Below are positions 22,930-64,000 of a stretch of 64,000 nucleotides of DNA, piece after piece. The stretch lies in NCBI RefSeq assembly GCF_055900595.2, contig NZ_CM148325.1; one strand, given 5' to 3'. Position 1 is the first letter of the stretch. Each line of letters opens with the position of its first letter. The translations under genes and the position numbers were made by a program. The notes under the pieces were generated by a model. The model was given only the letters and a program-made list of their open reading frames with translations. It searched no databases and was not told the DNA's origin.

Positions 22930-23371
22930 GTTTATATTGCCTCCATGCGAAGAAGGGACTACCATCCAAATTGTTCGGGTTTGGAGTGGCAGCCCCAGGG
23001 TTGATAGAAATATCTCCTGGGGCTTCATCTTTCCAGACCTCAGAGTAAACCTGAAACCGGAAAGCTTCAGGCACCCGCAGTCATCTTACCCTTCCTTAGC
23101 AAAATAGCTGTTTATTTATACAGTTGGTCTTATTTCGGACTTCTCACTACGCATTAGATCAACCGAAACTAAGCCAGTTTTTCCTTCGCCCCTCAATCAT
23201 CAAAATTCTCCGCCGCCAGCCAGCTCTGCCATAACTTGGCACATTGCAAAAGTAGCCAAACTTCTTCAGTCACAATCAGTTCACCATCACCAAAAAAAAG
23301 AAACATTCCAGAACTTCCGCATCTCCCCCGGCCGCTCCCACTTCTATACTGAAATGAAAACGCCAACATAA

Positions 23372-25994: not shown

Positions 25995-26053
25995 TTCTCC
26001 TTTGCCGGGCATCCGCCCGGCTATTTCCCCTCAGATTATCCTGATTTGCATAA

Positions 26054-43630: not shown

Positions 43631-43812
43631 ATCTCCTCCAGGTAAGTCGGGTACGACCTGGCTTACCTCTTTCGCTCTCGTCAGAATTCCATCAAGATTA
43701 ATTGCTAAAAAGCGTGCTAAAGAAAGAAGATCGTTATCGGCGAACGGGCCGATCACTCATGCAGGAAGCATAGATCCTTTGAGCGGAGTTTCTGATATCT
43801 GAGGAGTGCGAA

Positions 43813-44574
43813 ATGCAATTGAGCAGCAGTGAACCTTGCGTGGTGATCCTGACCGAAAAAGAGGTAGAGGTAAGCGTCAATAACCATGCTACGTTTACCC
43901 TTCCGAAAAACTACCTGGCCGCCTTCGCGTGCAACAATAACGTCATTGAACTCTCAACGTTAAATCACGTATTAATCACCCACATCAACCGTAACATCAT
44001 CAACGATTATCTGTTGTTTTTAAATAAGAACTTAACCTGTGTAAAGCCCTGGTCGCGGCTGGCTACCCCGGTTATCGCTTGTCATAGCCGTACACCGGAA
44101 GTGTTCCGGCTAGCCGCCAACCACAGCAAGCAGCAACCCAGCAAACCCTGCGAAGCGGAGTTGACGCGCGCATTGCTTTTTACCGTATTGTCTAACTTTC
44201 TTGAGCAATCGCGGTTTATTGCCCTACTGATGTATATCTTACGCAGCAGCGTCCGCGACAGCGTCTGCCGCATTATTCAAAGCGATATTCAGCATTACTG
44301 GAATCTGCGAATTGTCGCCAGTTCGCTATGTTTAAGCCCCAGCCTGCTCAAAAAGAAATTAAAAAACGAAAATACCAGCTATAGCCAGATTGTCACAGAG
44401 TGTCGTATGCGTTACGCCGTACAGATGTTATTGATGGATAACAAAAATATCACTCAGGTAGCGCAATTATGTGGCTATAGCAGCACGTCGTACTTTATCT
44501 CTGTTTTTAAGGCGTTTTACGGCCTGACACCGTTGAATTATCTCGCCAAACAGCGACAAAAAGTGATGTGGTGA
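43813..44574 (+). CDS. envY: AraC-family transcriptional regulator EnvY
   Basis: 253-aa ORF with a C-terminal AraC-type HTH (QVAQLCGYSSTSYFISVFKAFYGLTPLNY). Confidence 0.85.
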   Translation: MQLSSSEPCVVILTEKEVEVSVNNHATFTLPKNYLAAFACNNNVIELSTLNHVLITHINRNIINDYLLFLNKNLTCVKPWSRLATPVIACHSRTPEVFRLAANHSKQQPSKPCEAELTRALLFTVLSNFLEQSRFIALLMYILRSSVRDSVCRIIQSDIQHYWNLRIVASSLCLSPSLLKKKLKNENTSYSQIVTECRMRYAVQMLLMDNKNITQVAQLCGYSSTSYFISVFKAFYGLTPLNYLAKQRQKVMW

Positions 44575-44619
44575 AGGGCAAAGCGGAAACAGATAAGACT
44601 GGCATAAATCAAGAAGAAA

Positions 44620-44664
44620 TGGCGCGCCCTGCAGGATTCGAACCTGCGGCCCACGACTTAGAAG
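44620..44664 (-). other. 45-nt copy of the 3' end of tRNA-Arg (argU), a prophage attachment-site repeat and not an intact tRNA
   Basis: Minus strand reads CTTCTAAGTCGTGGGCCGCAGGTTCGAATCCTGCAGGGCGCGCCA (T-arm, acceptor stem and CCA); identity to argU as recalled stops at the anticodon-stem side and there is no D-arm or anticodon loop. Confidence 0.75.
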
Positions 44665-45086
44665 TTCCTAGAACGACATTTTAAGTCAACAACTTACCGC
44701 GCCATCTCTGCGCTCACACGTCCCACTACCTCAAAACATGTAAAGCCTTGCAAGCCATTGTGAGGCCTTATGTGTCTCAGTTTTGTCCCTCTTTTTTGTA
44801 CTAAAAAACATAGTAATTGAGGATAAACCTCATGCTATTTTCGCTTATATGCCTCTAAAGGCATGGCACTTAAATAGATAAAAGCACCACAAAAGCATAA
44901 AAAACCACACAGTAAAACCGCAATATGAAACAATAACAGATAATTAAACCAAAAACAGATAGCGCATTGTGATAATCATTCAATACTAAACAAAATATAA
45001 ACAGTGGAGCAATATGTAATTGACTCATTAAGTTAGATATAAAAAATACATATTCAATCATTAAAACGATTGAATGGAGAACTTTT

Positions 45087-46040
45087 ATGCGGGCGAAACT
45101 TCTGGGAATATTCCTGACAACCCCTATTGCGATCAGCTCTTTTGCTTCTACCGAGACTTTATCGTTTACTCCTGACAACATAAATGCGGACATTAGTCTT
45201 GGAACTCTGAGCGGAAAAACAAAAGAGCGTGTTTATCTAGCCGAAGAAGGAGGCCGAAAAGTCAGTCAACTCGACTGGAAATTCAATAACGCTGCAATTA
45301 TTAAAGGTGCAATTAATTGGGATTTGATGCCCCAGATATCTATTGGGGCTGCGGGCTGGACTACTCTCGGCAGCCGAGGTGGCAATATGGTCGATCAGGA
45401 CTGGATGGATTCCAGTAACCCCGGAACCTGGACAGATGAAAGTAGGCACCCTGATACACAACTCAATTATGCCAACGAATTTGATCTGAATATAAAAGGC
45501 TGGCTCCTCAACGAACCCAATTACCGCCTGGGACTCATGGCCGGATATCAGGAAAGCCGTTATAGCTTTACAGCCAGAGGTGGTTCCTATATCTACAGTT
45601 CTGAGGAGGGATTCAGAGATGATATCGGCTCCTTCCCGAATGGAGAAAGAGCAATCGGCTACAAACAACGTTTTAAAATGCCCTACATTGGCTTGACTGG
45701 AAGTTATCGTTATGAAGATTTTGAGCTAGGTGGCACATTTAAATACAGCGGCTGGGTGGAAGCATCTGATAACGATGAGCACTATGACCCAGGAAAAAGA
45801 ATCACTTATCGCAGTAAAGTCAAAGACCAAAATTACTATTCTGTTGCAGTCAATGCAGGTTATTACGTAACACCTAACGCAAAAGTTTATGTTGAAGGCG
45901 CATGGAATCGGGTTACGAATAAAAAAGGTAATACTTCACTTTATGATCACAATGATAACACTTCAGACTACAGCAAAAATGGTGCAGGCATAGAAAACTA
46001 TAACTTCATCACTACTGCTGGTCTTAAGTACACATTTTAA
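45087..46040 (+). CDS. ompT: Outer-membrane protease (omptin)
   Basis: 317-aa MRAKLLGIFLTTPIAISSFASTETLSFTPDNINADISLGTLSGK... ending ...AGLKYTF. Confidence 0.9.
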   Translation: MRAKLLGIFLTTPIAISSFASTETLSFTPDNINADISLGTLSGKTKERVYLAEEGGRKVSQLDWKFNNAAIIKGAINWDLMPQISIGAAGWTTLGSRGGNMVDQDWMDSSNPGTWTDESRHPDTQLNYANEFDLNIKGWLLNEPNYRLGLMAGYQESRYSFTARGGSYIYSSEEGFRDDIGSFPNGERAIGYKQRFKMPYIGLTGSYRYEDFELGGTFKYSGWVEASDNDEHYDPGKRITYRSKVKDQNYYSVAVNAGYYVTPNAKVYVEGAWNRVTNKKGNTSLYDHNDNTSDYSKNGAGIENYNFITTAGLKYTF

Positions 46041-46289
46041 GAACGCCAACTAAAATTTCCCCGAGGTGAAAATCGCCCCGGGGAATAACTAGCCATTTCA
46101 ATGTAACAATTAACCCTTAAAATAAACCCAGAAGGTTATTAACTAAATCACATAGAAAACCATCAATTATAGTGTGTATAAAATAGCCGACAGCAACCCA
46201 ATTACAAATTAATGGTTCCAGAATATCACATCAAAAAACACGCTGTATAATATTATAATTAACATGTAGACAACTTGTAATAAACATTA

Positions 46290-47039
46290 TCAGTCAATTG
46301 TTTTGTTTATTCCATCTGTGACGCCGATTATTTTCTCAAAATAATGAGATGGCGTGACACCATAATAATCTTTAAATGCACATATGAAATATGAAGTACT
46401 GTTATAGCCACATTTCTGGGCTACGACATTGATAGAATAAGAGTTTGAAGTTATGAGTTTTTTTGCATACCTCATCCTAGTATCTCTCAATATTTCAGTA
46501 AATGACGTTCCTTCATCCCTTAATCTTTTTTTTATTAAACTTTCACTCGTATAAATCAATTCCGCAATATCTTTTAAATGCCATTGCCGCTCAATATTAA
46601 AACTGATTATTCCAGTAATTTTACATGTAAATGTATTTATATTTGTTAGTATAAATGAATTTACACTTTCGCGTTTTTTGAACATGGCAAGTAAGGATAT
46701 ACATAGTCTTTCTTTTAACCAAAGGGAGTGTGAGTCTGCTATTTTAATCCCTTCAAACAGAGAAAAAACAAGCGATAATGGAGGTTCCTCTTCAGCAATA
46801 TAGCCATTCTTATCAAGAGTAAATTTGCCAGGCAACTCATTATTCACGTCGATAAAAAAGGATAAACATGTTTTCTTATCTATATCAACAATTCTTAGTT
46901 TAGAGGGGCATACTGGTAACTCTCTTCTAATTTTGTCGCTTACAATAAACAATGAATTTTTTTTGAACGAGATAACTCTCCTGTTTATAATTAAATCAAA
47001 TGATTGACAGATGAAAACTACGGAGCAAACATAATCCAT
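46290..47039 (-). CDS. appY: AraC-family transcriptional activator AppY
   Basis: 249-aa [36 protein letters not shown]...; AT-rich gene and AT-rich upstream region (47040-47600). Confidence 0.9.
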
Positions 47040-47714
47040 CTTGCACCTATCATAAAATTAAAACAAGTTGATAGTAGTCAAATAACAGCCAATTAAATAC
47101 ACAATCATAATCAGGATGATGTGCATTTATATTTTTATACACAAAATTATAGTTTGCAAATTTTAATAAGTTTCATTTAAGATTAAATTATTATATGTAT
47201 ATTGTTTTTTATTCTAACGTATTTCAAAGTTACATTTTTCAACGCTTACTATGCTTTTTATTAACATAAACTCACTACAACGCACCTGAAACCTCTTGCT
47301 ATATATATGTCAACCGTTTGAATTTAAAATAAAAAGAGTATCATTTTTACTTGCATTTCTTATCAAGTCACATTCAACAACAGTAAAAAAACATTATTAG
47401 AACCATTCAATTAACAAAAAACCAACATCCAGCTTGCTTAATTTTTCTTTATTAAACGATATTGAAAATCAATTGATAAAATACATCTAAACAACCTTTT
47501 GGGGCGCAAAAGCATAACATCAAACAAACAAATAACACACCGAAAAAACTCACAATTAATAACCTATGATATACATACTGTTTATTATGGTTGAATAAGC
47601 CACTCGATATCTGGTGCTACGGAAGTGTCCACACGGTTTAGCAGCACCCGATACTTTTTCCAGGCTTCCAGCAACGAGTTTTCTTCCTCCGTTGCATATA
47701 CAGCTCACCTTTTT

Positions 47715-48008
47715 TCACCCACGATTAACCAACAGCCAGACCAGCAGACACGCCACCACCGGCACAGCAAAATCCATCAGGCTTGCCACATCCCATGCAC
47801 GTGTATCAAAACCGCCCCACCACGGCATATTCATTCGCTTGCCATGCCCGAACATTTCGATCCAGCGATATTCTGCCTGGGTGTGTTCACGCGCAATGAA
47901 GAACGTACAACCGGCTATCGCCCCGTAAGCCCAGTTTCCGGTAAAAAGACCAACCAGTACCTGCGCAGCCACAGCACAAAGTGCATGAAGGAAAGGTGTT
48001 ATATCCAT
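47715..48008 (-). CDS. Hypothetical small membrane protein (prophage-borne)
   Basis: 97-aa ORF with two strongly hydrophobic segments (LHALCAVAAQVLVGLF..., FAVPVVACLLVWLLV); no family recognised. Confidence 0.4.
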   Translation of the reverse strand: MDITPFLHALCAVAAQVLVGLFTGNWAYGAIAGCTFFIAREHTQAEYRWIEMFGHGKRMNMPWWGGFDTRAWDVASLMDFAVPVVACLLVWLLVNRG

Positions 48009-48018
48009 TATTCCTCCT

Positions 48019-48723
48019 TTATCCGATATCGCTTCGGGAAGTTAATAACAACTTTAATTCTGACTCAAGTTCATCAACTCTTTCAGTCAGCTTCTGGATA
48101 TGGTGAATCAGTGGAACAACCAGACGTTCGTACATTACACCTTCGGCAACAAGGCCATTGCTGGAAATAGCTTCAGGAGCATCATCTTCGTTAGCTGGTC
48201 GCCAGTGTACAAACTGAGGGGCAATTTCTCCTACTTCCTCGGCAATCAATCCGTAGAACCCCCAGTCACGCCTGTCATTTTCGCATTGCGACCTGTACCA
48301 CACAGGGCGCATCCTGAAAATGACATCGGCGTGCTCTGAATCTATCGTCTCTACTGAATGTTTATAGCGGATAGACGATGTGGACCGCAGTACAGACGAA
48401 ATTGCAGGGTCAGGATTAAGATAAAGGTTTGCCGCCGCAGTAGTCGTGCCCAACCCCCATAAATAAAACGCTTCGCGGCCAGTCAGCGGGTAAAAATCAC
48501 CGCCATAACGACCGCTTTCCAGATCGTTCGCTTCCACTTTGTTTTTCAGCTTATTATCAACTTCAGTTTTTGTGTATCTGGTGCTGATATCCTGCTTTGC
48601 ACTGGTCATATCAATCTGAAGCGTTGATACTTTTCCGTTAATTGAGGAAATATCTTCCTTAGTTTTACTGACATCTCCCTTTAGCGTGGTGATATCTCCA
48701 GGAATTACTGTCGATGTAGCCAT
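48019..48723 (-). CDS. Putative tail-fibre segment with a C-terminal intramolecular-chaperone (peptidase S74-like) domain
   Basis: N-terminal repetitive coiled-coil-like region (TLKGDVSKTKEDISSINGKVSTLQIDMTSAKQDIS) followed by GFYGLIAEEVGEIAPQFV, typical of the self-cleaving chaperone domain of tail fibres and spikes; recognition from memory. Confidence 0.5.
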   Translation of the reverse strand: MATSTVIPGDITTLKGDVSKTKEDISSINGKVSTLQIDMTSAKQDISTRYTKTEVDNKLKNKVEANDLESGRYGGDFYPLTGREAFYLWGLGTTTAAANLYLNPDPAISSVLRSTSSIRYKHSVETIDSEHADVIFRMRPVWYRSQCENDRRDWGFYGLIAEEVGEIAPQFVHWRPANEDDAPEAISSNGLVAEGVMYERLVVPLIHHIQKLTERVDELESELKLLLTSRSDIG

Positions 48724-48732
48724 TTGTCTCCC

Positions 48733-49014
48733 TCACATCCAGCCACGAAGTTGATGCTCAACAACAACCGCGTATTCATCGAATATTGACGGTGTTTTCA
48801 CATCATTAATGATGCGCACGTTTACAAAATATCCGTCTTCCTTAACACATACCGGCTCGCCATCTTCAGTAATTTCCCCGGTTTCTTTGTACACGTTACC
48901 TATCACATCAATGAGAACATTGTTCTGCATCACCTCGTCATCGTCATAACCAATGCTATCCATAAAGGCCGAAAAGTCGGCCTTGTCTGTGAATTTGATA
49001 ATTAAGTCTCGCAT
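48733..49014 (-). CDS. Hypothetical acidic protein (prophage tail region)
   Basis: 93-aa ORF between the two tail-fibre-like genes; no family recognised. Confidence 0.4.
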   Translation of the reverse strand: MRDLIIKFTDKADFSAFMDSIGYDDDEVMQNNVLIDVIGNVYKETGEITEDGEPVCVKEDGYFVNVRIINDVKTPSIFDEYAVVVEHQLRGWM

Positions 49015-50024
49015 TATATTACCTCTCCCATTTGTGCATCGGTTAATTCTTTATGCCATATACGAAAATTACGAATGTGACCGAAAAGATGACGTAGACC
49101 GCTATTAGTCTGTCCCCCAATCCTGAAGAAATAACCAGATTTAACACCGACATGATCCGTGGTTTTAGGAGTCCCATGCTGGGCATTGCTAACGAAATGC
49201 ACATTACCAGATTCATTTAAAACAAATCCAAGAACAGATTTTTGTTCAAATAATACTGGCGATACGGCGGCTACTGTACTACCGTTTTTATTGTGCATCG
49301 TAACACCAGGAAATAATGTTGAACTAATAGCAACACTTATATATTGACCCGGAGTTGTGCTCCCACCACTGGTATCAAAAATTCGTGGTGCTGCATTTGG
49401 CGTTTCGTTCCAGTTTGTATGAACTTCAGCTAGAAATGTTAAAGGTGGTGTACCGATATTGTTATTTGTTGGTATATTCACCATATCACTGGCTCTTGTG
49501 ACTGGCGTTGCCTCAGTAATAATAAACGAAGAAGCGCACGAACCGCCTTCGACCTGAGGAGTTGCAACATAAATATAATCATCTGCACCAGTGCTTCCCC
49601 CTTTTGGTGGTGCATATTGCACCATCGCACCGATCATATTTTCTGTATCAAGTGCCTTAATTGTTGCCTCAAAGAAAATCCATTTGCTTGCTTCATTTTT
49701 AACAGCCCTTGCAGTAATACGACTTGCAGCGCCGCCAGTTTTATCAATCGATAAATCTGTCATATTTAAGTAAGCATCACCCAGGAATTTGTAGGTAGAT
49801 CCATCATATTCTTCAAATCGTAATCGACATCTTAAATTTGGAGTCCCACTTTGTACCCTGCATGAGATAGTTACATACTTTTCATCGCCGGTAACATCAT
49901 ATCCTTTGCTTCCAGATACTGTGACAATAGAAATGGCTGAGGTTTGCCCCACCATTTCTGGTTTTAATGTGAATTTTGCGTACTGGAAACCAAAATCATC
50001 TACACCTGATGTATTTAAAATCAT
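49014..50024 (-). pseudogene. Putative phage tail-fibre / receptor-binding protein, probably 5'-truncated by IS1
   Basis: ORF 49014-50048; its first Met codon lies inside the IS1 terminal inverted repeat and the next in-frame ATG (50024) has no ribosome-binding site; C-terminus ...GYFFRIGGQTNSGLRHLFGHIRNFRIWHKELTDAQMGEVI resembles lectin-like tail-protein domains. Confidence 0.45.
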
Positions 50025-50049
50025 ATTTGATGACGGTAATGACTCCAAC

Positions 50050-50553
50050 TTATTGATAGTGTTTTATGTTCAGATAATGCCCGATGACTTTGTCATGCAG
50101 CTCCACCGATTTTGAGAACGACAGCGACTTCCGTCCCAGCCGTGCCAGGTGCTGCCTCAGATTCAGGTTATGCCGCTCAATTCGCTGCGTATATCGCTTG
50201 CTGATTACGTGCAGCTTTCCCTTCAGGCGGGATTCATACAGCGGCCAGCCATCCGTCATCCATATCACCACGTCAAAGGGTGACAGCAGGCTCATAAGAC
50301 GCCCCAGCGTCGCCATAGTGCGTTCACCGAATACGTGCGCAACAACCGTCTTCCGGAGCCTGTCATACGCGTAAAACAGCCAGCGCTGGCGCGATTTAGC
50401 CCCGACATAGCCCCACTGTTCGTCCATTTCCGCACAGACGATGACGTCACTGCCCGGCTGTATGCGCGAGGTTACCGACTGCGGCCTGAGTTTTTTAAGT
50501 GACGTAAAATCGTGTTGAGGCCAACGCCCATAATGCGGGCAGTTGCCCGGCAT
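50050..50553 (-). CDS. insB: IS1 InsB reading frame (expressed as an InsAB' fusion by -1 frameshift)
   Basis: 167-aa ORF ...[33 protein letters not shown]...; overlaps insA. Confidence 0.85.
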
Positions 50554-50747
50554 CCAACGCCATTCATGGCCATATCAATGATTTTCTGGTGCGTACCGGG
50601 TTGAGAAGCGGTGTAAGTGAACTGCAGTTGCCATGTTTTACGGCAGTGAGAGCAGAGATAGCGCTGATGTCCGGCGGTGCTTTTGCCGTTACGCACCACC
50701 CCGTCAGTAGCTGAACAGGAGGGACAGCTGATAGAAACAGAAGCCAC
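50472..50747 (-). CDS. insA: IS1 InsA protein
   Basis: 91-aa [43 protein letters not shown]... Confidence 0.85.
50488..50499 (-). promoter_or_regulatory. IS1 programmed -1 ribosomal frameshift site (A6C run)
   Basis: Minus strand reads CTTAAAAAACTC in the insA / insB overlap. Confidence 0.5.
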
Positions 50748-50801
50748 TGGAGCACCTCAAAAACACCATCATACACTAAATCAGTAAGTTGGCAGCATCA
50801 C

Positions 50802-51430
50802 CCATTACCGCCCATAATGATGATATTAGTGACGCCCTCACTAAATTCTGCGTAGCTCTCAATATCATCATTTGGATCAAAAGTTTCTTTATCCTTACCT
50901 GACCACTCAGCACCGCCAGACTGAGTGATGATATTTTGTGGTTTAATATTCCAGTCCAGCTCATAACGTTCAATACCATCGCCCTCAATGATATTTTTCC
51001 CCGTTGTGATTGCCTGAACGGCAAGCCATTCAATACGTGCACGAATAGCTTTAGCCTGATTTACAATCGCCTGTTTAACTTTAATATTACGCGCTCCAAA
51101 AGCATTGTATTGCTCAGGTGATACACCAGCAGGGCGCACAGCTAACTTATTTGGATCAATGCTGCTTTTCGGCTTCATATAGCCTGGACGAATTGTTTTT
51201 GATTCGAACCCTTCGTCACGTGAAACTTTACTACCCACCATAGGAGAACAAAACGCTGCAATTGGGATATTTGGATCGTCGATTGTATCAAGAATAATAT
51301 CGCGCGATTCAAACATTACCGAGCGAGTAAAAAACAAACTGGTAAACAACGCATTTAGTTGTTTTTGTACATCTACAGCATTAACCACCTGTACAAGCTG
51401 AGTAGGCGAATATAAATCAACCATACGCAT
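50802..51430 (-). pseudogene. Divergent lambda-E-like major capsid protein gene, 3'-truncated by IS1
   Basis: ATG at 51430 gives MRMVDLYSPTQLV... (compare lambda E MSMYTTAQLLA); continues ...NIITQSGGAEWSGKDKETFDPNDDIESYAEFSEGVTNIII (compare lambda E NNITQSGGTEWSKRDKSTYDPTDDIEAYALNASGVVNIIV), then runs into the IS1 end after about 206 codons. Confidence 0.6.
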
Positions 51431-51640
51431 CCTCTTTGCATTCATTAAAAATAATTGTGGATATATGCTATCACCGATATTTGTCATGCGAACACATGCA
51501 ACCGAGTGCAATGTTGTATAAAGTTTTGGGGTGACAACTTCAGTGCGGACAATTAGTGTTAATATCTTCACTCCCTTTGGTCGGGATTTATGTAGCATGC
51601 CGGAAAATTTATTTTTTCTGGCTTTTTTTATTGGCAATAT

Positions 51641-52090
51641 TTAAAACGGGATATCATCTCCCCATTGCTCATTATCTCCCACTGGTGGCTGGCTTCCTTG
51701 CTGATCTGCCTGTTGTTTTGCTCTGTTCAGTGCGTCAGTAGCCTGCCCCTGTTGGCCTTTATTGCCGCCCGGTCGCACCGATCGCGCACTGATTACGCTG
51801 TCTGCGATAACCTGCCAGCCCTGCCGCGTTTCGCCGTTCTGTCCAGTCCACTGGCTCATCTGCATGTTACCCGCCACGCTCAGGAGTTCGCCTTTGTGAT
51901 GCTTTGCCAGCGCGTCGGCTTGTCTGCCAAACGCCAGGACAGATAACCACATCGTCGCCTGACCGTCATCCGACTGACTGCAGGGCAGTGATACCGCCAT
52001 ACGCGCCAGCGTCATGGGGGTGCCCTTGCTGGTCTGTTTTGTCTGCGGGTCGTCCACCAACCGCCCGTAAACTGATATTTGCGCCGTCAT
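51641..52090 (-). CDS. ssb: Single-stranded DNA-binding protein
   Basis: 149-aa ORF with an OB-fold-like N-terminal region, a Gly/Gln-rich linker and the acidic SSB tail ending DDIPF. Confidence 0.75.
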   Translation of the reverse strand: MTAQISVYGRLVDDPQTKQTSKGTPMTLARMAVSLPCSQSDDGQATMWLSVLAFGRQADALAKHHKGELLSVAGNMQMSQWTGQNGETRQGWQVIADSVISARSVRPGGNKGQQGQATDALNRAKQQADQQGSQPPVGDNEQWGDDIPF

Positions 52091-52332
52091 GCTGCCTGCT
52101 CTCCGGACTTAATATTGATTGTTGTCACTTCCTCCGCTTCAGCAATCTCCCGTTCGGTCAGAGTGGCAAAGTTTGCAGCCGCCGTTGTCATGAATGCGCT
52201 AATCAGTTCGGGATGTGCTTTCGCGTATCCTTCCCCGGCGTTGCGGTCGATGATTTTTATCGACACCCTTAACCAGTGTTCCGTCAAATCAAGGGCGTGC
52301 GATTGTGATTTTTTTGTGTGCTTCGCTGTCAT
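52087..52332 (-). CDS. Hypothetical protein, translationally coupled to ssb
   Basis: 81-aa ORF whose stop overlaps the ssb start (ATGA); no family recognised. Confidence 0.45.
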   Translation of the reverse strand: MTAKHTKKSQSHALDLTEHWLRVSIKIIDRNAGEGYAKAHPELISAFMTTAAANFATLTEREIAEAEEVTTINIKSGEQAA

Positions 52333-52379
52333 AGGCTTTATCTCACAGCAGTAAATTAAAATTTTTGCGTTTTAACCCT

Positions 52380-52610
52380 TCACCTGTTCACCTTTTGATA
52401 TTTTCTCTTTTAATTCATAATGTTAATGGGTGAACAGTTTCACAAAAACTATTCACCAACTGTTCACCACTGTTCACCCTTGAAGCTCAATAAACAATCA
52501 AAAAGGTGAACAGTGAATAGTTTGGTGAACAGTTCATAAATAACTGTTCACCCTATAATATACTGATATAAAAGATATTTATGACAGGGTGAACAGTGGT
52601 GAACAGTTAT
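52380..52610. repeat. Iteron array (about ten copies of CTGTTCACC / GGTGAACAG in both orientations), putative satellite origin of replication
   Basis: Copies near 52385, 52429, 52451 (variant), 52461, 52471, 52505, 52524, 52545, 52588 and 52598, interspersed with AT-rich spacers; the octamer TGTTCACC is the P4 type I iteron as recalled; lies directly 3' of the primase gene. Confidence 0.65.
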
Positions 52611-52619
52611 TCCATAAGT

Positions 52620-54440
52620 TTAATTTTTGCTATCGTCATTAGTGACCGATACACATGATGGCATCCAGTCTTCTGATTCCTCCGTCAGTGTCACGTTTGA
52701 ACGCAAACCGTGCTTCGTTTTCCGTTTCATATACTCCCTGCCATATTCCGCCATTGCCCCCGGCATATCTTTACCGAAGCGCGTCAGTGTTACAGGTTTA
52801 CCAAACCCATGTGCCCTCATATAAGCCAGATAGGCATGATAGAGATACCTGCGTGGGCTAAATGGCACAATTTCAGCATTACCCACTAACAGGCCATCAC
52901 ACATTACCGATGCCATGAGATAGCCGCAGAAGTCCACCAGCGAATCCCCCTCTCGCTTTATCGCCAGTGCTTCTTCAGATTTCTGCTGCTCATATAACAG
53001 GCGTCTGGCTTCGTCCTGATCATCAAACCGTGTAAGCAGATGACGAATCACTACCGCCAGCTCACCTTCTATTTTTTCCGCCAGCATCGAATCGCGTTCG
53101 TTCTCCGGTACAACTTCCGAAAAATTGAATATCACCCGACGACGTGAGATCCCCCCGCTGCGGTCACTGAATGACATGGCGTTATTGTTAACCGCCAGCA
53201 CTACTGCCGGAATACGCGTTGAATAGGGGGCTTTGTGTTTCGGGTCAATTGCCACCTTGTCACCGCCTGTAATGGCCTTAATCCCTGCCCCATCACCAGC
53301 GTAGCGGGTCATATCCGGCATGATAATCAGCGAAAAGCCAACCACTAACGCACGTTCCCTTGCATCTTCCAGCGCCTTCATGCTTGCTGATACTGTATTA
53401 GCCTTACCCGCCAGCATGGTGCAAATCTCCGCCATCACACTTTTACCACTTCCCCCCGGCCCTGTTACCTCAATGAATAACTGCCAGTCGTACCGGTTCG
53501 CCAGCACCATGAATAATGCCGCCAGTACGCGATCTGCCTTGCGGTCATTCTCAGCCACCGAACGGCGCAACCACTTCCAGAAATTCGGCGCATGTGTTGC
53601 CAGCGTTTCCCCCTCTGCTGGTGGGCTGAAAGGTAATTCACTGGCAATTAACAACCAGTCGTTTTTGTTATGCTCCCGAAAATTACCTGTTCTGGTATCA
53701 AATACCCCGTTACTGAATCCAATCAGGTTACGGGCTGTATTCCCCATTACAGGCAAACTTAACTTCATGGTATCTACCGCCGATTTAATGGCGTTCTGCG
53801 AATAGCTGATCTCCACATCAATGAAAATCTGCGCCATAGCACGCTGTAACTCTTTATCCTGAACCGGCTCCCATACAACGCCGTTGTAATGATGAACGGT
53901 GTCAGAGTCGGCATTGATTGCCAGTTCGCCGCCGTAATGTGCCAGGAGAACTTCACCGCGCTGGCTGGCCCCCATCTGATTCAACGCCAAAGATGAAGCA
54001 CGCTCGTCATTTTTGCGCTCTGCCTTCTTCACTGGCAGTTCAATCACCAGACTTTCCCCATGCTCCGCTTCAGCTTTTAGGCCGACAAGGCGCGGAGTCC
54101 AGTCTTCAGGCTCTCGATCAACAAAGCTACGGTAACAACGTGCTTCCTTTACGCCTGCAATAGCAAGTAATGTCGCAACCTTCGTCAGATTTTTCTCTGC
54201 GATCTTTCCGGCACGATAAACACGCACATAATGACGGCCTTCATCGATAATTTGCATATCATCCAGGTTTTCCAGTTGTTCCGTACCCAGAATTACTGGT
54301 GGTGTATCATCTGCTGCAATATGCTTACCCGCCCATTCATTCCATTCTTTTGCATGGCTCCAGGCATCACTGCCAGCAAAAATGATGACTTCTGTCATTT
54401 TGTCGCGCGGTTGGTATTTTAAGTTCGGAGCACGTTTCAT
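52620..54440 (-). CDS. Primase/helicase-type replication initiator (P4 alpha / D5-like, P-loop NTPase)
   Basis: 606-aa ORF; Walker A GPGGSGKS in the C-terminal half; iterons immediately downstream. Confidence 0.8.
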   Translation of the reverse strand: MKRAPNLKYQPRDKMTEVIIFAGSDAWSHAKEWNEWAGKHIAADDTPPVILGTEQLENLDDMQIIDEGRHYVRVYRAGKIAEKNLTKVATLLAIAGVKEARCYRSFVDREPEDWTPRLVGLKAEAEHGESLVIELPVKKAERKNDERASSLALNQMGASQRGEVLLAHYGGELAINADSDTVHHYNGVVWEPVQDKELQRAMAQIFIDVEISYSQNAIKSAVDTMKLSLPVMGNTARNLIGFSNGVFDTRTGNFREHNKNDWLLIASELPFSPPAEGETLATHAPNFWKWLRRSVAENDRKADRVLAALFMVLANRYDWQLFIEVTGPGGSGKSVMAEICTMLAGKANTVSASMKALEDARERALVVGFSLIIMPDMTRYAGDGAGIKAITGGDKVAIDPKHKAPYSTRIPAVVLAVNNNAMSFSDRSGGISRRRVIFNFSEVVPENERDSMLAEKIEGELAVVIRHLLTRFDDQDEARRLLYEQQKSEEALAIKREGDSLVDFCGYLMASVMCDGLLVGNAEIVPFSPRRYLYHAYLAYMRAHGFGKPVTLTRFGKDMPGAMAEYGREYMKRKTKHGLRSNVTLTEESEDWMPSCVSVTNDDSKN

Positions 54441-54724
54441 TTGTTACCTCCGGCAACTAACATTGCCCGAATTTTGCGGATATAGCCTGCGGCACGCCTC
54501 TGATTATCTGTCTTGCAATTTTTTACCAGAATGAAATCTCTTTCGAACTGCTGACGCGGCATAACACATTCAAAATCATAACCATCACGCAAATAAGAGA
54601 CACGACGATCATCAACCGAAATAATCTTTACCCGATAGCCATAGCTGTCTTTGAAAATATCCCCAAGGCTGATTTTTGAATGAGTTTGACCGCTGGCAAT
54701 AAAGCCAGAAAATTTATTTTTCAT
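54437..54724 (-). CDS. Hypothetical small basic protein, translationally coupled to the primase
   Basis: 95-aa ORF with a GGAG ribosome-binding site 8 nt upstream of the ATG; stop overlaps the primase ATG (ATGA). Confidence 0.45.
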   Translation of the reverse strand: MKNKFSGFIASGQTHSKISLGDIFKDSYGYRVKIISVDDRRVSYLRDGYDFECVMPRQQFERDFILVKNCKTDNQRRAAGYIRKIRAMLVAGGNK

Positions 54725-54727
54725 TTT

Positions 54728-54952
54728 TTATTCTCCGGTATAGCTCTGGTCGTGTATTTTTATAGCTTCATCCAGCTCTTTGATGACAGGATCAAGTAAC
54801 GTAATTAACGCTCCAGCTAAATTAGCATCCCGTTCATCGTGTTCCGCATTTGTTGTCCCATCAAGCCAGGTTGATAAGATTTCTCGCATATTTTTGCCAC
54901 AAACGAGCGCGTTTTCAGCATGTGTCAGCACTTTAAAATAAAGATCATTCAT
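54728..54952 (-). CDS. Hypothetical small acidic protein
   Basis: 74-aa ORF in the same operon-like array upstream of the primase. Confidence 0.4.
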   Translation of the reverse strand: MNDLYFKVLTHAENALVCGKNMREILSTWLDGTTNAEHDERDANLAGALITLLDPVIKELDEAIKIHDQSYTGE

Positions 54953-55148
54953 GGCACACCTCCTGACGAATACGGGCGGCGAATATCATCACGTAGCCAG
55001 TTGGGGATTGCAGCCGGGCTTCCTGTTCGCTGGCGGCCTCGATGGTAATCACGCGCGGTTGTGCCGTACTCAGGGCGATAAAACGCCAGATGTATTTATT
55101 CAGGTTGTGCGGGTCCCGCCCTTGCGGGTGTGTGGTATGATTTCTCAT
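54945..55148 (-). CDS. Hypothetical small protein (first gene of the leftward replication operon)
   Basis: ATG at 55148 with a GAGG ribosome-binding site 7 nt upstream gives MRNHTTHPQGRDPHNLNKYIWRFIAL...; the longer ORF to 55259 is probably an extension. Confidence 0.4.
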   Translation of the reverse strand: MRNHTTHPQGRDPHNLNKYIWRFIALSTAQPRVITIEAASEQEARLQSPTGYVMIFAARIRQEVCHE

Positions 55149-55287
55149 AGCTACCTCGATACTGTTGCTATCGTTGGTGGTTAGAAGCCCGTTGGTGTTC
55201 CTAGCACCTTCGGGCTTTGCTTTTTTAAGTGCCTCCGTGTTAAGGTGGTCACCTAACAATGAAAAGGCTAATTCAATAGGTGGTCAC

Positions 55288-55479
55288 TTGTCAACGATCA
55301 AACGCGATAAAAGTCCTAAGGGTGATGGGCAATCTCCACAATTCAGAATGCGAATTTCTCCAGAGCTAAAAGAGCAATTCGACAAAGAAGCGCAGAGCGA
55401 CGGCATAAGCCTAGCCAACTGGCTTAAAGAATTAGGGCGCAAAGAGCTGCTACGGCGCGGTATTGAACCAAAAGGATAA
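55288..55479 (+). CDS. Putative ribbon-helix-helix (Arc/MetJ-like) DNA-binding protein
   Basis: TTG at 55288 preceded by AGGTGG; product ...FRMRISPELKEQFDKEAQSDGISLANWLKELGRKEL has the beta-strand then two-helix pattern of Arc-type repressors; an alternative ATG start at 55348 is possible. Confidence 0.5.
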   Translation: MSTIKRDKSPKGDGQSPQFRMRISPELKEQFDKEAQSDGISLANWLKELGRKELLRRGIEPKG

Positions 55480-55506
55480 GAATAATTGAAGTCAAGGAGC
55501 TAACAC

Positions 55507-55863
55507 ATGAAATACGAATTCTTCGCAACAAGTAGCAGTAGTTTGGATGTATACATAGTCACTGTATCAAACGATTCTGGCTCTCTAATCATGACTTGTA
55601 ATTGTCCAGCAGGAAGTAAAGGTATTCTATGTAGACACCGTAAAGCTTTAATTACCGGAAAAATCCGCGGTATATTCACTCCCCCAAGAAGGAATAATCC
55701 CGAAAAATTACAAGAAGCTATAAATTTAATAGCCACATATGGCATAGATAAAACATTAAAGTTGTACACTGATGAGTTAGAACGAGCAGAACAGACTTGG
55801 ATAAGTGTTCGCGATAATTTGAGAGCAATGATAAACGCTCTTGTTGAACCACCTAAATATTGA
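55507..55863 (+). CDS. Small SWIM-type zinc-finger protein
   Basis: 118-aa ORF with an AAGGAG ribosome-binding site; CNCPAGSKGILCRH fits the SWIM CxCx(n)CxH motif. Confidence 0.55.
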   Translation: MKYEFFATSSSSLDVYIVTVSNDSGSLIMTCNCPAGSKGILCRHRKALITGKIRGIFTPPRRNNPEKLQEAINLIATYGIDKTLKLYTDELERAEQTWISVRDNLRAMINALVEPPKY

Positions 55864-55929
55864 ACTGTTCACATTGCCTATCAGGCGATAACCTCGTATT
55901 CTGATTAAGGCTAACTATATACTCACATT

Positions 55930-55955
55930 GGCGACCAATTCTGGTCGCCTTTATC
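55930..55955 (+). terminator. Rho-independent terminator after the SWIM gene
   Basis: GGCGACCA-ATTC-TGGTCGCC hairpin followed by TTTATC. Confidence 0.5.
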
Positions 55956-55994
55956 TACCATTTTTATAATATCATAGATTAAGAGTGTTAATCC

Positions 55995-56816
55995 TTACCC
56001 CCTGAATGGAATTGATGAGGATTTAATTTCCACAGAACCAAATCCTCTTGAATCCAAAAACATTTTTATACCAGCCTCAATAAAATCATAATCGCTTGTC
56101 GGGCCAATTGTAATGCTTTTAATTGGTAACTTTCTATTATCTTTATTATTAATAATGATATAAGGGATGATACCATTATTATTTATTCTAAATTTCACAT
56201 CTGGCATTTGTATCCACGGAGTAAACACCAGTCTAAATTCATTTTCTTCGATAAAACTAGGATGTTTAAAAAATGGGATATATTTAGATATAAATTGATA
56301 CGTAGAGACCATTGTTACAAAATGATCATTCATTTCTTTAATGTTAATACCATTACAAGAAAAAAACTCATCCAACTCCTTACTCATCTTTGTAATATCG
56401 TCATTATTTGAATATATAACATCATGTGCAACACAATTTAAATAAATATTTTGACAAAAACTCACAAGTTCATCCGCATCAAATTCAATGCAAACGCCCT
56501 GTTTATTTCCGTAACCTCTCCACTGACTTAACTTATCGTTTTCTTTACAAAAAGATATGCTATAAACATGTTTATCAATCCCTTTTTCTTTTTGTAACTT
56601 CCCTTTCTCATACATGTCAAGAGACTTGAGCAAAATAGTTTTCTTATCTTTTGGGATGATATTATCATCAACTATTTTAATTGTATTTCGAAAACATTCA
56701 CATCCATGGTTAGACTCCTCTTTATCATTTAAGAAATATATATTTGTAGCCCATAAAGAATTAGAGTCTAATATACCTTTCAAACCAAAAAGATCTGTAT
56801 AATGAAATATAGCCAC
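55995..56816 (-). CDS. DUF2971-like protein of unknown function on an AT-rich cargo segment
   Basis: GTG at 56816 preceded by AGGTGG gives (M)AIFHYTDLFGLKGILDSNSLWATNIYFLNDKEE...; the N-terminal aromatic-HYT ... LW ... NDxxE pattern is assigned to DUF2971 from memory; markedly AT-rich by eye compared with the neighbouring int/alpA. Confidence 0.6.
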   Translation of the reverse strand: MAIFHYTDLFGLKGILDSNSLWATNIYFLNDKEESNHGCECFRNTIKIVDDNIIPKDKKTILLKSLDMYEKGKLQKEKGIDKHVYSISFCKENDKLSQWRGYGNKQGVCIEFDADELVSFCQNIYLNCVAHDVIYSNNDDITKMSKELDEFFSCNGINIKEMNDHFVTMVSTYQFISKYIPFFKHPSFIEENEFRLVFTPWIQMPDVKFRINNNGIIPYIIINNKDNRKLPIKSITIGPTSDYDFIEAGIKMFLDSRGFGSVEIKSSSIPFRG

Positions 56817-56833
56817 AATGCCCCACCTAATAG

Positions 56834-57064
56834 TTAAGTCGTTTCCCACTCACCTCGAATCCATGCCTGCACTTCTGAAAGACGATATGCAACAGCAGTG
56901 GAACCAATCTTGATCCGCTTAGGAAATTTTCCTTCCTTCTCCAGCTTCCAGCGTGTGCTGTTCGCAAGAGTGGTTAGCTCCCGACATTCTTTCTCACGGA
57001 TCATACGATCGATGTTAGGAATGTACTCCAGACCCTTTTTATCAACAATTGCCATTTTTTTCAT
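56834..57064 (-). CDS. alpA: AlpA-family transcriptional regulator / excisionase-like protein
   Basis: 76-aa MKKMAIVDKKGLEYIPNIDRMIREKECRELTTLANSTRWKLEKEGKFPKRIKIGSTAVAYRLSEVQAWI..., immediately downstream of the integrase. Confidence 0.8.
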   Translation of the reverse strand: MKKMAIVDKKGLEYIPNIDRMIREKECRELTTLANSTRWKLEKEGKFPKRIKIGSTAVAYRLSEVQAWIRGEWETT

Positions 57065-57065
57065 G

Positions 57066-58301
57066 TTAACCAGCCTTTTGTTTGAGGATTGTCACTTTTG
57101 AATCAGCACCTGCGATGCTATTGAGATATGTAGTCCAGAGTTCCAGAGCATCCAGTTTTTTAGCCATAAACTTACTCCGGTTGTAAACACCCGCCACGCC
57201 AGGTAGCGCATGGCCTAACAGTTGTTCTACTACATAAAATTCAACACCGAGATCACTTAGATGAGTAGATAGCGTTCTTCTAAGGTCGTGTAGTGACCAT
57301 TGTTTTTCATGGCCCAAACGTTTACCGATTTTCCCCCCAATCTTGCTTACGCTTTCTCTAATTCGCAGACTTCCCAGCACATAACCAGTATGTTTTGTCT
57401 CTTCGTGAACATCCGTTACCCACTGTCGTAGAATTTCAGGTACTGGTCTGACGATTTCAACACCAGTTTTTGAGTGATCTTTTGGTACCGTCCAAACCCA
57501 ACTTTCGAGATCCCATTCGCTCCATTCAGATAATCGGGCTTCACTCATTCGACATCCAAATACTGTACAAAGCACAAACATTTTTCGCGTGTATTCAGAC
57601 ATTAGTTTTAAATCAGGCTCGACAAAAATTGCCTTCCAGAGCTGGCCGAGTTCGGCTTCATCCAGAACCCGATCCCGCTTACCTGCAATCTGCCCCACAT
57701 CACTCATGCGCAAATCCTTTAAAGCATCACACGTCGCGTACTGGCGTACCCGACAAAAACGAAGAGCTAATTTAGTGTCAGAAAAAACATACGCCGCCAT
57801 AACTGGTGCATTACGTTTAATTCGGTCAAAACAGTCCAGCCATTCATATAGGTGAGTGTCATTTACGGGCAAATGACCGATATAGGGAAAGATATGCTTT
57901 CGAAATCTGCCAAGCGTTACAGCATGAGTTTTACGACGCACCTTACAGTAATTTTCATACCAGTAATTTAGTGCATCCTCCACTGTGACCGGCTTTAAGC
58001 GTTCTTCAGCCTGAATCTTAATCTGGATACGCGGATCACGTTTGTCAGCCAACCAACCACGGCACTCGTCGCGCTTTTCCCTTGCCTGTTTGAGTGACAT
58101 ATCAGGATATTTACCCAACGTTAGCCAGACCGGAGCAGCCCGGCCACCTGCTAACCTGTAGAAGAAAACAAAGCTCACAGCCCCTTTAGTACTCACACGA
58201 ATAGAAAGCCCCTTTCCATCAGCAATGGTGATCTGCTTTTCTCTGGGTTTCCCCAGATATCCTTTAAGCGCTTTGTCGCTCAGTTTGTTCTCGCCAGCCA
58301 T
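57066..58301 (-). CDS. Tyrosine recombinase, P4-type integrase
   Basis: ATG at 58299-58301 gives MAGENKLSDKALKGYLGKPREKQITIADGKGLSIRV...; C-terminal catalytic region with ...HDLRRT... and ...LLGHAL...Y motifs; the 5' end sits about 160 bp from the point where the E gene breaks. Confidence 0.85.
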   Translation of the reverse strand: MAGENKLSDKALKGYLGKPREKQITIADGKGLSIRVSTKGAVSFVFFYRLAGGRAAPVWLTLGKYPDMSLKQAREKRDECRGWLADKRDPRIQIKIQAEERLKPVTVEDALNYWYENYCKVRRKTHAVTLGRFRKHIFPYIGHLPVNDTHLYEWLDCFDRIKRNAPVMAAYVFSDTKLALRFCRVRQYATCDALKDLRMSDVGQIAGKRDRVLDEAELGQLWKAIFVEPDLKLMSEYTRKMFVLCTVFGCRMSEARLSEWSEWDLESWVWTVPKDHSKTGVEIVRPVPEILRQWVTDVHEETKHTGYVLGSLRIRESVSKIGGKIGKRLGHEKQWSLHDLRRTLSTHLSDLGVEFYVVEQLLGHALPGVAGVYNRSKFMAKKLDALELWTTYLNSIAGADSKVTILKQKAG

Positions 58302-58433
58302 TTTTAGCCCCAAAAAGCAATACAAGCTGCAATACAGAGATGATTGCAACACACAGATAACGAGGAAAATTCAGTGAAAGCACCAGATAAACTTATTCTT
58401 TATTATCAAAAGATTAAGTGTAAAAACCAGCAA

Positions 58434-58709
58434 CTACACGAAAGCCTCAGAAAGCCATGCTAAGTGCTTGGGTTTGACATAACCCGGCGTAAATTCAGAG
58501 GTGGAGCCGCCACGGGATCGGATAACCTCACCGGAAACAATCGGCGAAACGTACAGCGCCATGTTTACCAGTCCCGGAATTTGTGAGAGATAGACTTTTT
58601 CCGTGGTGAAAGGATAGGTTTCACGGAAAAACAGGCGCAGAAACAGCGGATCGAACTTAAAGTGATGCTGGGTCGATGCCAGTAATTCTGCAGTTGTATA
58701 TACAGACAT
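58434..58709 (-). pseudogene. Lambda-like major capsid protein E, N-terminal 82 codons only
   Basis: MSVYTTAELLASTQHHFKFDPLFLRLFFRETYPFTTEKVYLSQIPGLVNMALYVSPIVSGEVIRSRGGSTSEFTPGYVKPKH then unrelated LAWLSEAFV and a stop; similarity to lambda E ends at 58463/58464. Confidence 0.8.
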
Positions 58710-58764
58710 AAATTATTTCCATAAAAAAAGCCGCACAGGCGGCCTTTGTTGATGAAGGGGAAGA

Positions 58765-59097
58765 TTAAACGATGCTGATTGCCGTTCCGGCAAACGCGGT
58801 CCGTTTTTTAGTCTCGTCGCTGGCAGCCTCCGGCCAGAGCACATCCTCATAACGGAACGAGCCGGACTTGTAGAACGTCAGTGTGGTGCTGGTCTGGTCA
58901 GCAGCAACCGCCAGAATGCCAACGGCTGCACCGTCGGTGGTGCCATCCCACACAACCAGCTTACGGGTAGTGCCATCCAGCATCAGCGGGGTCATTGCAG
59001 GCGTTTTCGCACTCAATCCGCCAGGCGCAATTGCTGTATGAGCCGGATCACTGTTACCCAGCGGCTGGTAATGGTTAAACTCTTCTTTTGTCGCCAT
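58765..59097 (-). CDS. Head decoration protein (lambda D-like)
   Basis: 110-aa [42 protein letters not shown]...FAGTAISIV, close to lambda gpD as recalled. Confidence 0.9.
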
Positions 59098-59106
59098 AAC
59101 TGCCTC

Positions 59107-60418
59107 TTATACCGGTAAAGCTTCAGGTGTATTAAGTAATTCTTTATTGGTATCAGATGCCAGGTTACCTGCAGCCAGCGGTGCCGGTGCACCCTGCATC
59201 AGACGATCCAGCGCAGTGTCACTGCGCGCCTGTGCACTCTGTGGTGCTGCAGCCAGAATGCGGCGGGCCGTTTCCACGGTCATTCCGGGGGTTTCGGCCA
59301 GAACGCGCGCCTGTTCTTCGCGTCCGTGAGCCTCCTCACAGTTGAGGATCCCCATAATGCGGCTGTTTTCTGCCGCAACCGCTGCGGTGATCTGCGCGTT
59401 CACGTCCGGCTGCGCCGCGCTGGCGTTTTCGCCCTCCGTCGCTGGCACCACGTCAGTAACGTCAGCCTGCGAAGCAGTGGCTGAAACAGTTGTTGATTGA
59501 GTCTCTTTGGTCATTCGCCCTCCTGAGAGACGGGATTTACGCGCATCCAGTGCATCACGCATGACGGTGATCGCATCGGTGCTGTTAACAAGTTCATCAG
59601 CCAGTCCGGCATCAATGGCCTCCTGACCGCTGTACACTGCAGCCTCGGTATCCAGCACAGCCTGCACAGACAGGCCGGTATATGCCGACACCTTCTGCGC
59701 AAACATCTGGCGGGTTGCGTCCATCCGGGACTGCAGTGTCTCCCGGACGTCATCCGGAAGATGGCTGTAGGGATTGCCATCCACCTTATGGCTGCCGCTG
59801 TAAATCAGCGTGATTTCCACACCCTGTTTCTCCAGGGCAGCACCGTAATTACTGTGAGCCATCATGACGCCGATGGAGCCTGTCCGGGCGGTCTGCGTGA
59901 CCAGACGCCGGGAGGCGGCACTGGCAAGCAGCTGACCTGCACTGCAGTTCATGTCGTTGGCCAGCGCCCATACCGGTTTTATGTCACGCACACGGGCGAT
60001 GATGTCAGCGCAGTCAAATGCCCCCGCCACCATTCCGCCTGGCGTGTCCATATCGAGCAGAATGCCGTCCACCATCGGGTCGCTGGCAGCCTGTTGCAGA
60101 CGGGCGATAATGCCGTTGTAACCGGTCATCCCCGAGTACGGCTGCAGCGCCCGCGTCCGGCTGACCAGCGTGCCGGACACCGGCAGCACGGCGATGCCGT
60201 TCATGACCTGATAACTGCGGGCCTGTCGTGGTCCGTCATCATCACCGGATAATGCCAGCGTCGCGAGTGCCTCCTGGGCAGTCAGGCTGTCGCCGGACAC
60301 CGCATCCGTCAGGCGGCTGATCCCAAGCTGGCCTGCAAGCGCACAAAAGAAAACCCGCGCATAGGCGGGTTCAAGCATCAGCGGCTCATTAAAGGCCATG
60401 CTGGCAATATGCGGGAGA

Positions 60419-60438
<20 letters not shown>
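59107..60438 (-). CDS. Head maturation protease / scaffold (lambda C-like, with nested Nu3-type scaffold frame)
   Basis: GTG at 60438 gives (M)TAELRNLPHIASMAFNEPLMLEPAYARVFF...; overlaps the portal gene end by about 20 nt as in lambda. Confidence 0.85.

Positions 60439-64000
<3,562 letters not shown>

Follow-up and report, generated by a model that had tools for sequence, protein, structure and literature searches.

A deletion of about 17.8 kb with IS1 at its joint appears to have removed the tail genes of a probable DLP12-type prophage together with part of a satellite nested in it

The window, by which we mean the whole 64-kb stretch of DNA that was analysed, contains a complete IS1 element placed between two truncated phage genes (Table 1). 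On the side of appY and ompT, IS1 adjoins the 3' part of a side tail fibre (stf-like) gene, which lacks its first 1,364 nt, that is, the N-terminal 454 codons including the phage_tail_N domain, and which is followed by what is left of the distal tail fibre module of the prophage. On the other side IS1 adjoins the 5' part of a capsid gene of the Phage_cap_E family, broken after nt 622 in codon 208, and its reading frame enters IS1 and ends ...MGGN-G-stop at 50798-50800. A sequence-only reading of this DNA had described both truncations; the missing 5' end of the tail-fibre-like gene is borne out, with 1,364 nt gone, and the capsid-like gene is indeed cut, at codon 208 and not at codon ~206 as had been proposed.

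Table 1. Features around the IS1 joint in the 64-kb window, in order of position.
Feature	Position	Strand	Remarks
ompT	45087-46040	.	after appY; then envY
appY	46290-47039	.	after tfa remnant
Residual distal tail fibre module of prophage	47585..49014	-	
tfa remnant	about 47585-47695	-	
97-aa ORF	47715-48008	-	distal fibre module
Tail fibre domain/Peptidase_S74-like protein	48019-48723	-	234 aa
93-aa ORF	48733-49014	-	distal fibre module
Side tail fibre gene (stf-like), 3' 1,021 nt	49014..50034	-	full length 794 aa
Left 9-bp flank TTTGATGAC	50026..50034	.	= 980-2 (L002) 36264-36272, within stf
IS1 (IS1A-like), complete	50035..50802	-	768 bp
insB' frame, 167 aa	50050-50553	-	intact
insA, 91 aa	50472-50747	-	intact
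Right 9-bp flank CATTACCGC	50803..50811	.	adjoins IS1 right end
Major capsid gene assigned to HE-PICI, 5' 622 nt	50803..51424	-	Phage_cap_E family; full gene 346 aa
Surviving part assigned to HE-PICI	51641..58301	-	all ORFs intact
SSB	51641-52090	-	
81-aa ORF	52087-52332	-	
D5_N/Pox_D5 primase-helicase	52620-54440	-	
DUF4222	54437-54724	-	
Icd-like	about 54945-55148	-	
DUF2971	55995-56816	-	in variable zone
AlpA	56834-57064	-	
int (tyrosine integrase)	57066-58301	-	Arm-DNA-bind_3 + Phage_integrase domains
Prophage's own lambda-type E, 5' fragment	58434..58709	-	...TPGYVKPKH, then island; interrupted at E:Phage_cap_E:80
attL assigned to HE-PICI, 10-bp identity block AACCCAAGCA	58465..58474	-	sole copy in window
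Prophage head genes upstream of E fragment	58765..64000	-	intact
D	58765-59097	-	
S49 protease C	about 59107-60430	-	
Portal B	60419-62020	-	
W	62017-62223	-	
Terminase large subunit A	62220 to past window end	-	

The imperfect terminal inverted repeats GGTGATGCTGCCAAC / GGTAATGACTCCAAC, carried by an element of 768 bp, place the insertion sequence in the IS1 family, and the IS1A copies of the O121 locus (L003) are 99.74% identical to it. Read on the window strand, its left end is GGTAATGACTCC... and its right end ...GGCAGCATCACC or, in a longer reading, GGTAATGACTCCAAC... and ...GTTGGCAGCATCACC; the IRL end (GGTGATGCTGCC) is found at 50802, next to the capsid fragment, and the IRR end (..GGAGTCATTACC) at 50035, next to the tail fibre fragment. 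The A6C programmed -1 frameshift motif TTAAAAAAC between the insA and insB' frames is intact, and no second copy of IS1 occurs in the 64-kb window. The interval 50024-50810 previously given for this feature does hold the IS1, and its span is that of the element plus flanks, IS1 proper being the 768 bp of Table 1.

The target duplication usual for IS1 is 8 or 9 bp, according to Grindley 1978 as quoted in PMC12428005. This signature of simple insertion, an 8-9 bp direct duplication, is absent at the window IS1. The abutting n-mers of 7-14 nt on either side gave no match, at most 3/9 of the abutting bases agree, and a comparison of the 20 bp on each side revealed no common k-mer of 6 nt or longer, so there is no hidden or offset duplication; the original observation, that IS1 has no target-site duplication and that its 9-bp flanks differ, agrees with this re-inspection. 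We take the missing duplication to point to a rearrangement, and it would be no argument against the identity of the element as IS1. As for the flanks themselves, the right one opens with the 7 nt CATTACC, which read GGTAATG on the opposite strand, as does the left terminus of IS1, and the DNA at the stf-side endpoint is the most AT-rich stretch of the area, with an AT content of 74% (±25 bp) vs 43% in the late region.

As the undeleted reference we used E. coli 980-2 (NZ_CP127324.1; L002), which carries a prophage at the same tRNA-Arg...appY-ompT locus. Window positions 40008-50034 match 980-2 with 99.06% identity and positions 50803-55198 with 99.16%, on the same strand and colinear, and in 980-2 the two matches stand 17,788 bp apart (L002 18476-36263). 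The endpoints coincide exactly with the IS1 termini, with no extra, shared or lost bases relative to 980-2, and a search of the window for the L002 18476-36263 segment, which holds the tail gene block, found no match anywhere in the 64 kb. By the annotation of 980-2, the satellite part of the segment holds the last 419 nt of the capsid gene, followed by genes for a lambda-D-like decoration protein, an AlpA-like HTH protein, a Nu1-type small terminase (terS) and DUF2971, with attR also there, late zone and attR covering 736,475-739,600 in 980-2 coordinates; the helper part holds the last 789 nt of another capsid gene (E), then FI, FII, Z, U, V, G, T, H, M, L, K, I, J and lom, and finally the first 1,364 nt of stf. 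Since 17,788 bp separate the colinear flanks in 980-2, the window would carry a deletion with IS1 at its joint, and we hold it as highly probable that an IS1-associated deletion of ~17.8 kb is real, whichever route produced it. The value of 17,788 bp comes from a single relative whose flanks are ~1% diverged, and the cargo of the satellite is strain-variable, so the true loss may differ by 1-2 kb. An inversion or translocation was rejected, as both flanks lie on the same strand of 980-2 and the missing segment is unmatched elsewhere in the window, although a copy may lie in another part of the genome. The deletion of the tail block that had been proposed from the window by itself is thus in agreement with an intact relative, and the tail genes Z to J are indeed absent.

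The extent that had been proposed for the loss, from E to the side tail fibres, does not hold. According to that proposal the cut capsid gene is the E gene of the lambdoid prophage, and IS1 deleted from there to the side tail fibre gene. The cut gene does belong to the Phage_cap_E family and the tail genes are truly absent, as this account requires; however, at the protein level the gene is just 42% identical to the prophage E, and the genes ahead of it are those for SSB, primase, AlpA and integrase, not D, C and B. Moreover, the true 5' fragment of E is found 7.7 kb away from the cut gene, beside the att block at 58465-58474, where the island splits E. We consider that there is hardly any chance that the cut gene is the prophage's own E, and we assign it to a PICI of the helper-embedded kind (HE-PICI), 11capE type. 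As the cut capsid gene is the satellite's and not E, the deletion would start inside the satellite, not at E, and its actual span would run from the satellite capsid gene to stf.

The structure of the 980-2 island fits this assignment. It is bounded by two copies of the 10-bp direct repeat AACCCAAGCA, and its removal would join ...VKPKH to EVNPQ..., by which E would be restored exactly. The window has one copy, attL only, because attR is within the deleted segment. The HE-PICI type element, Eco567.11capE, has the site E:Phage_cap_E:80, near codon 80 of Phage_cap_E, a 10-bp identity block and its own capsid gene (PMC10111431), and 201 elements were counted at this site by Tommasini, Mageeney & Williams 2023 (PMC10111431). 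Among all complete genomes the best match to the window segment from the E fragment through attL to int is the type strain NRG 857C, with 99.7% identity, and the tyrosine integrase is accordingly of the 11capE clade; this junction is present in 173 of 5,426 complete E. coli genomes. Relative to the type element, window positions 50803-55092 are 99.1% and positions 56845-64000 98.6% identical. Both elements lie in the same 10-bp block of a lambda-type E and share the order int, AlpA, variable zone, Icd-like gene, DUF4222, primase, SSB and capsid, and both are oriented with the helper late genes, as the window shows by the upstream genes D, C, B, W and A, which share the strand. They differ in that the helper is the icd prophage in NRG 857C (PMC10111431) and apparently a DLP12-type prophage at tRNA-Arg here, and in that the window element has DUF2971 in its variable zone, a cut capsid gene and neither late zone nor attR. 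In terms of zones, the integration genes (int, AlpA) are followed by the dynamic zone, the replication zone (primase) and a late zone that is cut after capsid codon 208. We therefore describe the window satellite as what appears to be a truncated remnant of an 11capE-type member, not a complete element, similar in this to the 43 elements with an unmappable terminus in PMC10111431. A cf-PICI and a P4-like element were also considered, and both were ruled out because the published type element of the HE-PICIs matches.

We identify the host element as a probable DLP12-type lambdoid prophage at the tRNA-Arg...appY-ompT locus. The distal end, appY-ompT-envY, is present in the window, and the tRNA-Arg/int end, which falls beyond the window, was seen in the relatives only. 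DLP12 of E. coli K-12 (argU...appY-ompT) presumably resembles it in its nohD-type terminase, its stf/tfa remnants, and appY, ompT, envY and nfrAB, as well as in the loss of the head-tail block. Another close relative is Z0117EC0005, in which the left flank is 100% identical and the same prophage has a junction leading from inside terS to stf, where the annotation shows no IS. This prophage further carries an IS3 element, and its P gene and integrase are both truncated. In DLP12 relatives such as this one everything from inside terS to stf is gone with no IS annotated, whereas the window keeps the genes from terminase through D and the E fragment plus the satellite remnant, and its deletion is bounded by IS1. 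By this comparison, the block has apparently been lost more than once at the locus.

We then considered how far the joint is represented in other data. Both flanks around IS1 occur together in none of the 5,426 complete E. coli genomes, the left junction by itself is equally absent from these genomes, and an exact scan of species-representative genomes for it was also negative. The right junction has a near-identical counterpart in one O121 strain only among the complete genomes, and this was rejected as the same event, being an independent IS1 insertion 3 bp off. In addition, at least three sequencing runs have Logan assemblies that contain the junction-specific truncated capsid protein, and two Logan contigs are 100% identical to the window, one of 14.5 kb (L004), which stops 31 nt into IS1, and the other of 1,036 bp (L005), which stops 26 nt in. 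For the left junction, the 344-aa ORF that begins in IS1 with TTG has no exact match on record; in three other assemblies, containing the 336-aa ATG version of this ORF, the contigs end 6-10 nt from the left junction, and such endings may be regarded as suggestive. Data sets of the same lineage are SRR27886137, SRR20302900, GCA_037973475.1, GCA_015332705.1 and ERZ1742626.

These observations bear on whether the joint is an artefact, in which the assembly would have collapsed into one two IS1 copies that still have the 17.8 kb between them. The independent data show that both outer junctions exist; a collapse of two copies would share them, giving identical outer junctions, and the independent short-read contigs stop in or beside IS1 and do not span it, so that they can be read in favour of the artefact. 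On the other hand, IS1 was assembled whole inside contiguous 64 kb, the collapse needs two IS1 at exactly these sites, a state seen in no complete genome, and real deletions of the block by other routes are known at the same locus, for all of which we judge an artefact improbable. An ordinary simple insertion of IS1, with a 9-bp duplication later mutated away, has nothing in its favour beyond the presence of IS1, and we give it practically no credence: with no more than three of the nine abutting bases agreeing, the flanks are elsewhere 99-100% identical to those of relatives, and the lack of a duplication is not due to chance because the two flanks stand 17.8 kb apart in the relative. The missing duplications of insertion sequences have as usual causes adjacent deletion and IS-IS recombination, and either leaves one IS with unrelated flanks (PMC11708052). 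The sequence alone cannot separate these two routes, because the final sequence is the same as the product of IS1-IS1 recombination, and the choice of route rests on indirect evidence. We favour adjacent deletion, with a confidence somewhat better than even. By this route, a simple insertion of IS1 into the satellite capsid gene would have come first; its IRR end would then have attacked the AT-rich stf site on the same molecule, in an intramolecular or abortive transposition ('adjacent deletion'), and a single IS1 would have been kept while the intervening DNA was discarded, which would leave the flanks unmatched.

Several observations would fit adjacent deletion starting from the capsid gene. 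In O121 strain 201805972 an independent IS1 lies in the same orientation, 3 bp from the capsid junction of the window, in the capsid gene of a related satellite, and it has a perfect 9-bp duplication, TACCACCCA; we count it as evidence that this spot in the capsid gene may attract IS1. The likeness of the CATTACC at the capsid flank to the IS1 terminus would also favour a capsid-first adjacent deletion. IS1 is reported to prefer AT-rich targets, which the 74% AT of the stf endpoint fits. The alternative route would have required two direct simple insertions of IS1, one in the capsid gene duplicating CATTACCGC and another in stf duplicating TTTGATGAC, with homologous recombination between them looping out the 17.8 kb and one IS1. 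It predicts the product observed, a single IS1 flanked by the outer halves of the two duplications, and is a frequent cause of missing duplications (PMC11708052); moreover, IS1 has hit these islands repeatedly, with four copies in 28 kb in O121 and one in the satellite primase of WP7-S17-ESBL-04. However, it involves two insertions and a recombination, vs one insertion and one transposase event, an IS1 at the stf site is found in 0 of the 5,426 complete E. coli genomes, and the window has a single IS1 in 64 kb, so that we regard recombination as rather unlikely, while giving it appreciable weight. The intermediate that adjacent deletion would have passed through, an IS1 with the CATTACCGC duplication in the capsid gene and the tails intact, was likewise found in none of the 5,426 complete E. 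coli genomes. A one-step movement of the IS coupled to the deletion, with no prior IS1 at either end and no duplication, of the kind suggested in E. coli C for IS5, would give a product that looks alike, and such events appear in PMC11708052; but all the E. coli B cases in that work are explicable by prior insertion followed by adjacent deletion and none is documented there for IS1, and we see little prospect that it applies here.

Adjacent deletion, the route that we favour, has precedents in IS1. Replicative IS1 deletions are attributed to Turlan & Chandler 1995, as quoted in PMC12428005, and in experiments IS1 has given rise to deletions of 11-66 kb with one end exactly at an IS1 terminus and the other at varying places within coding sequences (PMC10569738). 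The deletions described in the nfsB region of clinical E. coli (Wan et al. 2023, PMC10569738) resemble the one in the window in having one intact IS1 at the joint and no duplication, in starting exactly at an IS1 terminus with the far end in a coding sequence, and in the loss of tens of kb. The window event is unlike them in that it was inferred from comparative sequence, with the pre-deletion state not recovered and IS1-IS1 recombination as a less likely alternative; in Wan et al. 2023 (PMC10569738) the IS1 copies are not placed in a prophage or a satellite. We also propose, tentatively and with more doubt than belief, that capsid codon ~207 may be a genuine IS1 hot spot owing to the 7-nt mimic of the terminus (CATTACC) in AT-rich satellite DNA, in which case IS1 would repeatedly knock out satellite capsid genes and could seed joint deletions of satellite and helper late genes. 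If true, composites of helper and satellite would time and again become inert chromosomal remnants in this way.

As for the consequences, in 980-2 the prophage seems to lack nothing: tRNA-Arg and int are followed by exo/bet/gam, the repressor, O/P, Q and lysis genes and then by heads and tails, and therefore the deletion would suffice for crypticity. In fact, the loss of the Z-J tail block alone would stop virion production. The earlier suggestion that the deletion explains why the prophage is cryptic stands to this extent, as a sufficient cause, for the part of the prophage that the window covers, the early region and argU lying beyond it. We infer that the helper would make neither tails nor capsids, since the deletion took the 3' part of E along with all the tail genes and those for head completion. 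The satellite, which has lost its late zone and attR, would be able neither to excise, because attR is lost, nor to be packaged, and E could never be restored; a single event would in this way have put both helper and satellite out of action. The composite as a whole might still excise, provided that the early region beyond the window is intact. On either side every surviving ORF is intact, with 99-100% identity to relatives, and from this together with the identity of the flanks the deletion would be recent.

We regard the locus as a case of ordinary prophage decay, in which IS1 deletions and HE-PICIs (published 2023) are both already known; the specific junction, which 0 of the 5,426 complete E. 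coli genomes contain, adds a new example of phenomena already described, and the finding leaves the understanding of IS1, of prophage decay and of PICIs unchanged. Its value is rather for annotation, as a capsid fragment beside IS1 in a lambdoid prophage is easily misread as the phage E, and recognising the nested satellite changed the account of what was lost and how much. It also indicates that a single IS1 event is able to inactivate a helper prophage and the satellite embedded in it together. The IRR end of the window IS1 faces appY, ompT, nfrAB, cus and nfsB, the last ~24 kb off. In clinical E. coli, IS1-adjacent deletions of 11-66 kb that remove nfsB lead to nitrofurantoin heteroresistance (PMC10569738), and therefore this intact copy, with its IRR turned towards nfsB, could seed further deletions of that type.

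The cut capsid gene beside the IS1 copy of the window is part of an 11capE-type PICI of the helper-embedded kind (HE-PICI), a satellite lying inside the prophage's own capsid gene E. Satellites of this type, whose att block is 10 bp long (AACCCAAGCA), were also located in E. coli 980-2, our undeleted reference, and in two further sequences, L010 and L001, and, among 5,426 complete E. coli genomes, the junction joining the 5' fragment of E to attL and int is present in 173. These satellites are mosaic in their early zone; in the window, the satellite's variable zone is unlike those of 980-2 and NRG 857C, the strain of the type HE-PICI, and agrees with WP7-S17-ESBL-04 and with L004, a Logan contig carrying the capsid-side junction.

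Coordinates of the features discussed
Feature	Location	Content
HE-PICI, 11capE type	window 51641-58474	SSB to int, att block
HE-PICI of 980-2 (NZ_CP127324.1)	L002 11014-21593	
Satellite variable zone	window 55198-56846	DUF2971; SWIM-like 118-aa ORF
Left IS1 flank with IS1 end (stf side)	window 50028-50041	TGATGAC
Right IS1 flank with IS1 end (capsid side)	window 50796-50809	CATTACC
E. coli O121 201805972 (NZ_CP119441.1)	L003 13483-14250	IS1
E. coli Z0117EC0005 (NZ_CP098223.1)	L009 22318-24191	terS-stf joint
E. coli WP7-S17-ESBL-04 (NZ_AP022177.1)	L011 11551-12320	IS1
nfsB	window 25362-26012	
Tandem direct repeat, entD-ybdK	window 22174-23146	hok-type ORFs, sok
nfrA	window 39746-42739	uninterrupted
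nfrA counterpart, 980-2	L002 43559-47334	ISKpn26 (IS5-like)

The satellite capsid site may be a hot spot for IS1. In a related satellite of O121 201805972, at a locus with four IS1 copies in 28 kb, an independent IS1 inserted in the same orientation only 3 bp from the position of the window's capsid junction and is bounded by a perfect 9-bp duplication, TACCACCCA. The likeness of both flanks to the IS1 termini may help to account for the choice of target: reverse-complemented, the left terminus GGTAATG gives the right flank (7/7), and the left flank agrees with IS1 TAATGAC at 6/7 positions.

The head-tail block of the argU...appY prophage has been lost independently. In Z0117EC0005 a terS fragment is joined directly to an stf fragment by a deletion that differs from that of the window and is larger; the annotation, our only source for this joint, lists no IS there. 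This prophage also carries an IS3 element and truncated P and integrase genes. Decay is frequent among HE-PICIs of the type found in E, and in WP7-S17-ESBL-04 another such element has IS1 within its primase gene and internal stops in SSB and terS.

About 24 kb separate nfsB from the IRR end (50035) of the window's intact IS1. IS1-adjacent deletions of 11-66 kb that remove nfsB are known to cause nitrofurantoin heteroresistance (PMC10569738), so such deletions could start from this copy. Elsewhere in the window, the direct repeat (about 470 bp, 94.7% identity) is a duplicated hok/sok locus, since both copies contain a toxin ORF of the hok type along with a full-length sok antitoxin RNA (Rfam RF01794, 84 bits apiece). 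The nfrA gene is unbroken in the window and carries an insertion in 980-2.
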